Assembly: GCF_003334255.1 (NCBI RefSeq)
Contig: NZ_QOWU01000145.1
Origin: Escherichia coli
GTDB lineage: Bacteria > Pseudomonadota > Gammaproteobacteria > Enterobacterales > Enterobacteriaceae
Reading direction: 5' to 3' (one strand)
DNA: 1,846 nucleotides
Shown here: in pieces, positions 1-1,846 of the stretch
Numbering within the stretch: the stretch's first letter is position 1
Layout: each line of letters opens with the position of its first letter
The notes under the pieces: generated by a model
The model's database searches: none
Told to the model about the DNA's origin: nothing
What the model saw: the letters and a program-made list of their open reading frames with translations, nothing else
Position numbers and translations under genes: made by a program

Positions 1-22
1 AGCTGATAGAAACAGAAGCCAC
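1..22 (-). CDS. insA: insA (IS1 transposition regulator) N-terminal fragment, 7 codons from a GTG start, truncated by window edge
   Basis: Minus strand from 22 reads GTG GCT TCT GTT TCT ATC AGC T, i.e. (M/V)ASVSIS, matching the known InsA N-terminus MASVSISCPSC. Preceded by GAGG. Only 22 nt are visible. Confidence 0.6.
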
Positions 23-42
23 TGGAGCACCTCAAAAACACC

Positions 43-48
43 ATCATA
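43..48 (-). promoter_or_regulatory. -10-like hexamer TATGAT in the IS1 insA promoter region, directing transcription leftward out of the window
   Basis: TATGAT on the minus strand lies 20 nt upstream of the insA GTG, with GAGG as a Shine-Dalgarno 7 nt before the GTG. The insA promoter is known to lie in the IS1 left end; the exact hexamer assignment is my inference. Confidence 0.5.
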
Positions 49-54
49 CACTAA

Positions 55-77
55 ATCAGTAAGTTGGCAGCATCACC
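55..77 (-). repeat. IS1 terminal inverted repeat IRL (about 23 bp), terminus at position 77 facing glcA
   Basis: Minus strand 77..55 reads GGTGATGCTGCCAACTTACTGAT, the known IS1 IRL. Exact extent of the IR is from established descriptions of IS1. Confidence 0.85.
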
Positions 78-1752
78 CTGGACCCAAATGTATATGCCGA
101 TGGGAGGACTGGGGCTATCCGCTCTGGTCGCCCTGATCCCGATAATATTCTTCTTCGTTGCACTCGCGGTATTACGTCTGAAAGGACATGTCGCTGGAGC
201 AATAACCCTTATATTATCTATCCTGATTGCAATATTCGCCTTTAAAATGCCGATTGATATGGCATTTGCTGCTGCGGGCTATGGCTTTATTTATGGATTA
301 TGGCCAATAGCGTGGATTATTGTCGCGGCGGTGTTCCTGTATAAATTAACCGTTGCCAGCGGGCAGTTCGATATTATCCGCAGCTCGGTTATCTCCATCA
401 CCGACGATCAGCGTTTGCAGGTGTTACTGATTGGTTTCTCCTTTGGTGCGTTGCTGGAAGGAGCGGCTGGCTTTGGTGCGCCGGTGGCGATTACCGGTGC
501 GCTGCTGGTGGGCCTGGGCTTCAAACCGTTATACGCGGCGGGGCTGTGTCTGATTGCCAATACTGCGCCGGTGGCGTTTGGTGCGTTGGGCGTGCCGATT
601 CTGGTCGCCGGTCAGGTAACGGGAATCGATCCGTTCCACATTGGCGCAATGGCGGGACGTCAGTTACCGTTCCTGTCGGTTCTTGTGCCGTTCTGGCTGG
701 TAGCAATGATGGACGGCTGGAAAGGGGTGAAAGAGACGTGGCCAGCGGCGCTGGTTGCTGGGGGAAGCTTCGCTGTCACTCAGTTCTTTACCTCTAACTA
801 TATTGGTCCGGAACTGCCGGATATTACTTCGGCGCTGGTGAGTATCGTCTCACTCGCTTTATTCCTTAAAGTCTGGCGGCCGAAAAATACCGAAACGGCA
901 ATCAGCATGGGACAATCCGCAGGTGCGATGGTGGTAAATAAGCCATCTTCTGGCGGTCCCGTGCCTTCAGAATATAGTCTGGGGCAAATCATTCGAGCGT
1001 GGTCACCGTTTTTAATCTTAACGGTGCTGGTCACCATCTGGACCATGAAGCCGTTTAAAGCGTTATTTGCTCCGGGCGGCGCGTTTTATTCACTGGTGAT
1101 TAATTTCCAGATCCCTCATTTGCATCAACAAGTGTTGAAAGCGGCACCCATTGTCGCCCAACCAACGCCAATGGATGCGGTGTTTAAATTCGACCCCCTC
1201 TCGGCTGGCGGCACCGCTATTTTTATTGCGGCGATTATCTCTATCTTCATCCTCGGTGTGGGGATCAAGAAAGGTATTGGCGTCTTTGCCGAAACGCTAA
1301 TTAGCTTGAAGTGGCCGATACTGTCGATTGGCATGGTGCTGGCGTTCGCCTTCGTCACCAACTATTCTGGCATGTCCACCACGCTGGCGCTGGTACTGGC
1401 AGGTACAGGCGTGATGTTCCCGTTCTTCTCACCGTTTCTCGGCTGGCTGGGCGTATTCCTTACCGGCTCGGACACCTCCTCTAACGCCCTGTTTGGTTCA
1501 CTGCAATCGACCACGGCGCAGCAAATCAACGTCTCTGACACCCTGCTGGTGGCAGCAAACACCAGCGGCGGCGTAACTGGCAAGATGATCTCCCCGCAAT
1601 CTATCGCCGTGGCCTGCGCCGCGACGGGCATGGTGGGCCGAGAATCTGAACTGTTCCGCTACACCGTGAAGCACAGTCTGATTTTTGCCAGCGTTATCGG
1701 CATTATCACCCTGCTGCAGGCGTATGTGTTTACCGGGATGTTAGTCTCGTAA
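64..1752 (+). CDS. glcA: Glycolate / L-lactate / D-lactate permease GlcA (LctP family, TC 2.A.14); 5' end abuts IS1 terminus and native start codon is absent
   Basis: Single long ORF ending at TAA 1750..1752. From [40 protein letters not shown] onward the translation matches my recollection of E. coli GlcA (about 560 aa, native N-terminus MVTWTQMYMP; homolog LldP starts MNLWQQNYDP). It is highly hydrophobic with a central hydrophilic loop, as expected for LctP permeases. The 64 coordinate is the ORF-track TTG, which lies inside IS1 sequence. The first in-frame ATGs are at 88, 94 and 100 (native Met7, Met9, Met11), so the true initiation site is uncertain. Confidence 0.93.
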
Positions 1753-1769
1753 ATCAATAAAGCCGGATG

Positions 1770-1792
1770 GGTGATGCTGCCAACTTACTGAT
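1770..1792 (+). repeat. IS1 terminal inverted repeat IRL (about 23 bp), terminus at 1770 facing glcA
   Basis: GGTGATGCTGCCAACTTACTGAT at 1770..1792. Confidence 0.85.
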
Positions 1793-1798
1793 TTAGTG

Positions 1799-1804
1799 TA
1801 TGAT
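1799..1804 (+). promoter_or_regulatory. -10-like hexamer TATGAT in the IS1 insA promoter region, directing transcription rightward out of the window
   Basis: TATGAT at 1799..1804, GAGG Shine-Dalgarno at 1814..1817, insA GTG at 1825. The spacing fits a promoter, leader and start arrangement. Hexamer assignment is inference. Confidence 0.5.
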
Positions 1805-1824
1805 GGTGTTTTTGAGGTGCTCCA

Positions 1825-1846
1825 GTGGCTTCTGTTTCTATCAGCT
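1825..1846 (+). CDS. insA: insA (IS1 transposition regulator) N-terminal fragment, 7 codons from a GTG start, truncated by window edge
   Basis: GTG GCT TCT GTT TCT ATC AGC T at 1825..1846 encodes (M/V)ASVSIS, matching the InsA N-terminus, and is preceded by GAGG. Confidence 0.6.

Follow-up and report, generated by a model that had tools for sequence, protein, structure and literature searches.

Two inverted IS1 ends around a 5'-truncated glcA segment on a short Escherichia coli contig

The window analyzed in this study, the whole stretch of DNA of 1,846 nt, is very likely a complete contig of a short-read de Bruijn assembly with a final k of 77 from an isolate of E. coli (or one resembling Shigella/EIEC), and it probably derives from a glc locus in which two inverted IS1 copies bracket glcA in situ. 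The 78-nt "terminal inverted repeat" is almost certainly the result, we infer, of the assembler having stopped inside the repeated IS1. The junctions between IS1 and glcA are real and the truncation of IS1 is probably an assembly artefact. The element, the gene and the type of event are all known, and so is the kind of assembly artefact through which they are viewed.

According to this explanation the window would consist of the unique DNA that separates two inverted IS1 copies of the chromosome, plus a 77-nt overlap with the collapsed IS1 at each end. The gene would have been bracketed in place, with or without inversion. One IS1, located in codon 3, would have separated glcA from its start codon, from its ribosome-binding site and from the promoter of glcDEFGB. 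The second IS1 would be placed 17 nt beyond the stop codon, in the terminator hairpin.

Composition of the window

A repeat search of the 1,846-nt window identified two arms, 1-78 and 1769-1846, which are 100% complementary over 78 nt with a spacing of 1690 nt. A scripted check showed that the complementarity holds to 78 nt and breaks at 79. The perfect terminal inverted repeat of 78 positions described in an earlier note on this DNA was hereby confirmed. The note had also assigned both 78-nt arms to the left end of IS1. This assignment stands with regard to the element, as the IRL is identical to that of IS1A, and has to be corrected in its length, as the IS1 part comprises 77 nt and not 78. 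Over their first 77 nt, the annotated 768-bp IS1A of E. coli HS (77/77 identity) and the two IS1 copies of K71-77 are identical to positions 1770-1846. Native bases of the glc locus form the 78th pair: base 78 (C) closes glcA codon 3 (ACC), and base 1769 (G) precedes ATCG in the native sequence. That these two bases are complementary is due to chance, with a probability of about 1/4. The perfect inverted repeat exists because both arms belong to the same mobile element. A chance origin of the 78-nt repeat was rejected, since the arms are identical to IS1 and too long for a sequence of 1.8 kb.

The left arm (1..77, minus strand) represents the first 77 nt of IS1 in reversed orientation, identical to HS L001 6491-6567, the IRL end of the 768-bp IS1A. 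Within this arm the IRL runs from 77 to 55, the promoter-like PIRL site (CTGCCA-16-TATGAT) from 70 to 43 and the GTG start of insA from 22 to 20, all on the minus strand. The right arm (1770..1846, plus strand) holds the same 77 nt of IS1 in forward orientation and is identical to K71-77 L002 3001-3077 as well as to the reverse complement of HS L001 6491-6567. Here, the IRL is located at 1770-1792 and the promoter-like PIRL site with the same motif (CTGCCA-16-TATGAT) at 1777-1804; insA starts with a GTG that is visible in the sequence at 1825-1827, and all three lie on the plus strand. Both promoter-like sites are directed outward, and the insA reading runs off the left and the right end of the window, respectively. 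The terminal inverted repeat GGTGATGCTGCCAACTTACTGAT (IRL), the embedded insA promoter-like site and the insA start, by which IS1 membership was assessed, are all present. The promoter-like sites and the GTG starts agree with the order IS1 (reversed)-glcA-IS1 (forward) proposed previously, with IRL facing the cargo and insA reading outward. On both sides the sequence breaks off after IS1 nt 77 because the contig ends there, which does not imply a truncation in the genome.

Between the IS1 ends lies a native glc-locus segment of 1,692 nt (78..1769, plus strand) that matches the E. coli HS chromosome exactly (L001 4002-5693) and is 100% identical to many RefSeq genomes with the gene annotated as glcA. 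It spans from nt 9 of the glcA CDS to 17 nt beyond the stop codon. The coding remnant, taken from the ORF list, covers 78..1752 on the plus strand with the stop codon TAA at 1750-1752. Its product was assigned to GlcA by the NCBIfam equivalog NF007249 with 1260.8 bits (cut-off 1121) over profile positions 7-560 of 560.

In HS the native glcA start reads ATG GTT ACC TGG ACC CAA ATG, and the unique part of the window starts at the last C of codon 3. A complete glcA frame of 560 codons with the native start is therefore absent, as the segment starts at CDS nt 9. Missing from the remnant are the first 8 nt (ATGGTTAC) with the ATG, as well as the ribosome-binding site and the connection to glcB. 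In-frame ATGs are left at 88, 94 and 100; a TTG at 64 lies within IS1. It had been stated that the cargo is trimmed to the gene boundaries, which does not hold, since the left IS1 takes away the first 8 nt of the CDS together with the ATG.

Downstream of the stop codon the window retains a native 3' flank of 17 nt (1753..1769, plus strand). In the native locus this region reads AAAGCCGGATGatcgttaatatCATCCGGCTT, and the stop with its context TAA-atcaataaAGCCGGATGatcgttaatatCATCCGGCTT. In comparison with HS (L001 5677-5710) the retained flank reaches only into the left arm of the terminator hairpin of glcA. The right IS1 comes directly after ...GCCGGATG, 17 nt beyond the stop, and splits the hairpin, whose loop and right arm are displaced by it. 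The two junctions are clean, with IS1 beginning at its very first base in each case.

Contig ends inside IS1

A unique edge of a de Bruijn graph that meets a multicopy repeat keeps k bases of that repeat at its end, and the default largest k of SPAdes is 77 for reads of about 150 nt. Arbitrary cuts at equal depth in both IS1 copies are expected in only ~1/768 of cases. Short-read de Bruijn contigs ending at a fixed k-mer length inside a multicopy IS are described in PMC5481147. The window resembles these repeat-bounded contigs in that it also ends at a fixed k-mer length inside a multicopy IS. We found no difference between them and the window, which is conspicuous by having the same IS end at both ends in opposite orientation.

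Similar contig ends were found in other data. Among the matches of the metagenome scan that are whole contigs, 12 of 13 stop inside IS1. Eight of these 12 contig ends are located 43-55 nt and four 117-126 nt from the IS1 end. Furthermore, the NCBI contig JASYTQ010000036.1 starts with exactly 55 nt of IS150 directly adjoining glcA.

The 77-nt arms are most likely a k-mer overlap and would therefore be uninformative on the completeness of IS1 or on the DNA beyond. The best reading is that each IRL end belongs to a full IS1 copy and that the DNA beyond is glcB-side and sslE-side, respectively. The symmetric repeat at the termini had earlier been regarded as the architecture of a composite transposon or, equally, as the outcome of two independent IS1 insertions. 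The repeat as such is present, and its simplest cause, the k-mer overlap at a collapsed repeat, had been overlooked.

IS1 insertions and other lesions at the glc locus

The unit was searched for in 5,426 complete E. coli genomes, in 72,556 plasmids (PLSDB), in the GTDB species representatives and in metagenome and viral contigs. The whole window gave many near-full matches among the 5,426 genomes, which were joined pieces with IS1 at other distances. In the whole-window search of complete E. coli genomes and plasmids, IS1 on both sides of glcA was present in K71-77 only, at different sites. Queries of 80 nt across each inner junction had no contiguous match in the 5,426 complete genomes; the exact insertion points of the window were not seen among them. 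The arrangement IS1-glcA-IS1 was not found in any of the 72,556 PLSDB plasmids either. In the same database, NZ_CP141089.1 (4.9 Mb) and NZ_OL790696.1 (4.8 Mb) are of chromosome size and filed as plasmids, and NZ_MG591698.1 (354 kb) carries glcA at its very start.

The outer junctions were predicted for a simple insertion with 9-bp duplications. They would read ...ATGGTTAC-CTGGACCCA-IRR on the glcB side and IRR-AGCCGGATG-ATCGTTAA... on the sslE side, or, in other extents, ...ATGGTTACCTGGACCCA-IS1(IRR) and IS1(IRR)-AGCCGGATGATCGTTAA.... With their flanks they would be ...CAATATGGTTAC and CTGGACCCA followed by the IRR end of IS1, and IRR followed by AGCCGGATG and ATCGTTAATATCATCCGGC.... One degenerate pattern combined both inner and both predicted outer junctions. 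It had 0 matches in the GTDB representative genomes, and its matches in the viral and metagenome contigs were chance matches only, with agreement in no more than 10 of the 16 flank bases. The predicted outer junctions had no match in the GTDB representative genomes, the viral contigs and the metagenome contigs, collections which evidently do not contain the source genome. The missing outer junctions are therefore no contradiction to a bracketing in situ.

On the protein level, a 562-aa form of GlcA with TTG start was absent from a collection of 15 billion proteins. Forms of 552 aa and 550 aa trace to contig-edge truncations, the end of IS150 or another element, adapter fusions, a frameshift and a nonsense allele. 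The literature search retrieved no paper dealing with glcA, IS1 and glycolate together.

K71-77 (NZ_CP040886.1; L002 3001-6850) carries an intact glcA flanked by two inverted, identical IS1 copies of 768 bp. Compared with glcB and sslE, a segment of 2.3 kb including glcA has been inverted. The 9-bp duplications have changed places reciprocally: the outer left CTGGGAGAA and the inner right TTCTCCCAG are reverse complements of each other, as are the inner left CTCTGCGCC and the outer right GGCGCAGAG. What K71-77 has in common with the window is a glcA in the glc locus with IS1 copies in inverted orientation on its two sides. In contrast to the window, where the IRL ends face a truncated gene, the IRR ends face glcA in K71-77, the insertion sites are the glcB-glcA intergenic region and a position upstream of sslE, glcA is complete and has kept its own start, and the swapped duplications prove the inversion. 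This genome shows that IS1-glcA-IS1 arises in place, by two insertions and recombination or by intramolecular replicative transposition. Both pathways are documented for IS1/Tn9 in PMC9330008. Beside the inverted segment of K71-77, the annotations of sslE (AcfD) and gspJ are both partial and the two genes lie in direct contact, suggestive of a further deletion.

Single IS1 insertions near glcA are more widespread. E. coli HS carries an IS1A (L001 5800-6567) 107 nt downstream of glcA and its hairpin, and an IRL is located within a few hundred nt of glcA in 36 further genomes, with 11 spacings among the matches listed. These simple insertions of the HS type are identical to the window in the terminal 77 nt and lie in the same glcA-sslE intergenic neighbourhood. 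They differ from the window, which has two copies, one of them interrupting codon 3 of glcA. Additionally, the glcA-sslE intergenic region of dozens of finished genomes harbours IS1 at many positions, ~100-600 nt downstream of glcA and in both orientations. This suggests a local hot region for IS1 ahead of the sslE/gsp island.

Further lesions were noticed in public data. In JASYTQ010000036.1 (GCA_030469895.1; L013/L051 1-55) the 55-nt IS150 end is fused to glcA at the ATG of codon 11, so that a different IS disrupts the same few glcA codons; here as well the contig ends k nt inside the IS. Foreign sequence adjoins glcA at codons 8-10 in L005/L043 1-30 (Logan ERR4024209_26) and in L014/L053 1-22 (Logan SRR28485202_49503). 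One of these two foreign ends reads ...GGGGTCAGTACA and resembles the end of an IS3-family element. It appears that the 5' end of glcA is a recurrent target in different strains.

The sequence AGATGTGTATAAGAGACAG, which we take to be the Nextera/Tn5 mosaic-end adapter, is fused to glcA in L044 1-19 (Logan SRR20301957_2156) and in L052 ~33-51 (ERZ23877847 NODE_44167). These fusions are untrimmed adapter contamination and not biology. In L003 (GCA_900449615.1) a deletion of 1 nt affects glcA codons 4-5 (~2985-3005; CTGGACCAAATG vs CTGGACCCAAATG), and glcB is split into three ORFs (458-2558). L004 (ERZ18534441 NODE_883) has a TAT to TAA change at glcA codon 8 (~2995). The lesions of L003 and L004 are either decay alleles of the glc operon or sequencing errors.

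Origin and consequences of the bracketed glcA

That IS1 insertions might bracket glcA in an IS1-rich genome had been offered in the earlier note as an alternative to a transposon. This is now the favoured explanation on the basis of the exact HS match of the segment, the arms of exactly 77 nt and the precedent of K71-77. Moreover, IS1 close to glcA is common in finished genomes.

An inversion of the glcA segment in situ, either by a single IS1 insertion and intramolecular replicative transposition or by two insertions and homologous recombination, is possible, though we regard it as rather unlikely. IS1/Tn9 are documented to cause intramolecular deletions and inversions (section 5.2.1 of PMC9330008), and K71-77 is a worked example at glcA itself, with inverted IS1 copies, swapped target duplications and the inverted 2.3-kb segment. 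Inverted IS1 copies with the same end (IRL) inward would also be the geometry of the replicative pathway. However, the four local junction sequences are identical with or without inversion, and two independent insertions look alike.

Less likely still, IS1-mediated adjacent deletions may have extended beyond one or both copies and left glcA as an orphan remnant of the glc locus. Adjacent deletions are a known effect of IS1 (PMC9330008), and other decay of the glc locus was observed in other genomes. The outer junctions of simple insertions were not recovered in the searched collections, but they may be missing since the source genome is absent from these, and no feature of the window requires a deletion.

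A third explanation is an IS1 composite transposon, similar to Tn1681 with its inverted IS1 arms, that carries glcA and has moved or is movable to new sites. We consider this highly improbable. The formal architecture fits, as two inverted IS1 copies surround a single gene, and composites flanked by IS1 exist, with Tn9 being named together with IS1 in PMC9330008. A composite transposon with glcA as its only cargo was also the main proposal of the earlier note, together with the suggestion to look for the unit at more than one locus. Neither inner junction was found in the 5,426 E. coli genomes, the 72,556 plasmids, the GTDB representatives or the metagenome and viral contigs, so that neither a second locus nor any sign of mobility emerged from these collections. 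In addition, the cargo is truncated at its 5' end and nothing selectable would be carried, as glcA is without start codon, ribosome-binding site and promoter. An intact and expressible cargo, by which a composite transposon was judged, is not present, the ATG, the RBS and the upstream operon being separated from glcA. The analysis gave no support to the proposal. The composite transposon is also strictly less likely than the double insertion in situ, because it first needs that state. That the unit has departed from the glc locus as a mobile composite transposon, or as an invertible cassette bounded by IS1, is likewise highly improbable. If true, IS1 would have captured a housekeeping gene for a transporter from the chromosome.

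Two known transposons are suited for comparison. Tn1681 reportedly consists of IS1 inverted repeats around the gene of a heat-stable enterotoxin and shares with the window a single gene between two inverted IS1 copies. Tn9 also has a single gene (cat) between two IS1 copies, but its IS1 repeats are direct whereas those of the window are inverted. Both reside on plasmids with an expressed gene that is selectable or contributes to virulence, and transposition has been demonstrated for both. In contrast, the window contains a 5'-truncated housekeeping gene with no second locus and no visible outer target duplication. Tn1681 is represented in the reference list of PMC3153297 (So & McCarthy 1980).

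An assembly chimera or a mixed population, in which the junctions come from different cells or mis-joined reads and no molecule has both, is very improbable as well. Adapter-fused and odd glcA contigs are indeed present in public assemblies (L044, L052), but a second path at either junction, leading into the native flank, would be expected to branch the de Bruijn graph within the unique segment and to cut the contig before the IS1 77-mer, whereas the contig is unbranched from IS1 end to IS1 end and its junctions are clean at the first IS1 base.

As to the expression of a glcA bracketed in situ, no promoter-like site leading from the left IS1 into the gene was found on the plus strand at positions 1-100. 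A hybrid promoter at the IS1 end driving glcA was rejected for this reason. Judged from the sequence, both IS1 copies are predicted to be transcribed away from glcA. The gene is probably silent and effectively a pseudogene, orphaned in transcription as well as in translation, because the start codon, the RBS and the glcDEFGB promoter are cut off and the IS1 copies would be transcribed away from it. The 554-aa form of GlcA with the Met7 start is present on at least 1,000 contigs and many annotations use this start. As the Met7 start is so widely annotated, a shortened GlcA starting at Met7 could work if it were transcribed and translated.

For the analysis of assemblies the window calls for caution: a short contig with perfect terminal inverted repeats mimics a transposon, or a "complete" element to tools that score terminal repeats. 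With regard to the organism, LldP is also able to import glycolate; glcA encodes a dispensable permease, and the IS1 allele probably knocks it out. Such IS1 insertion alleles are routine in IS1-rich lineages of E. coli and Shigella, and the window is one more of them.
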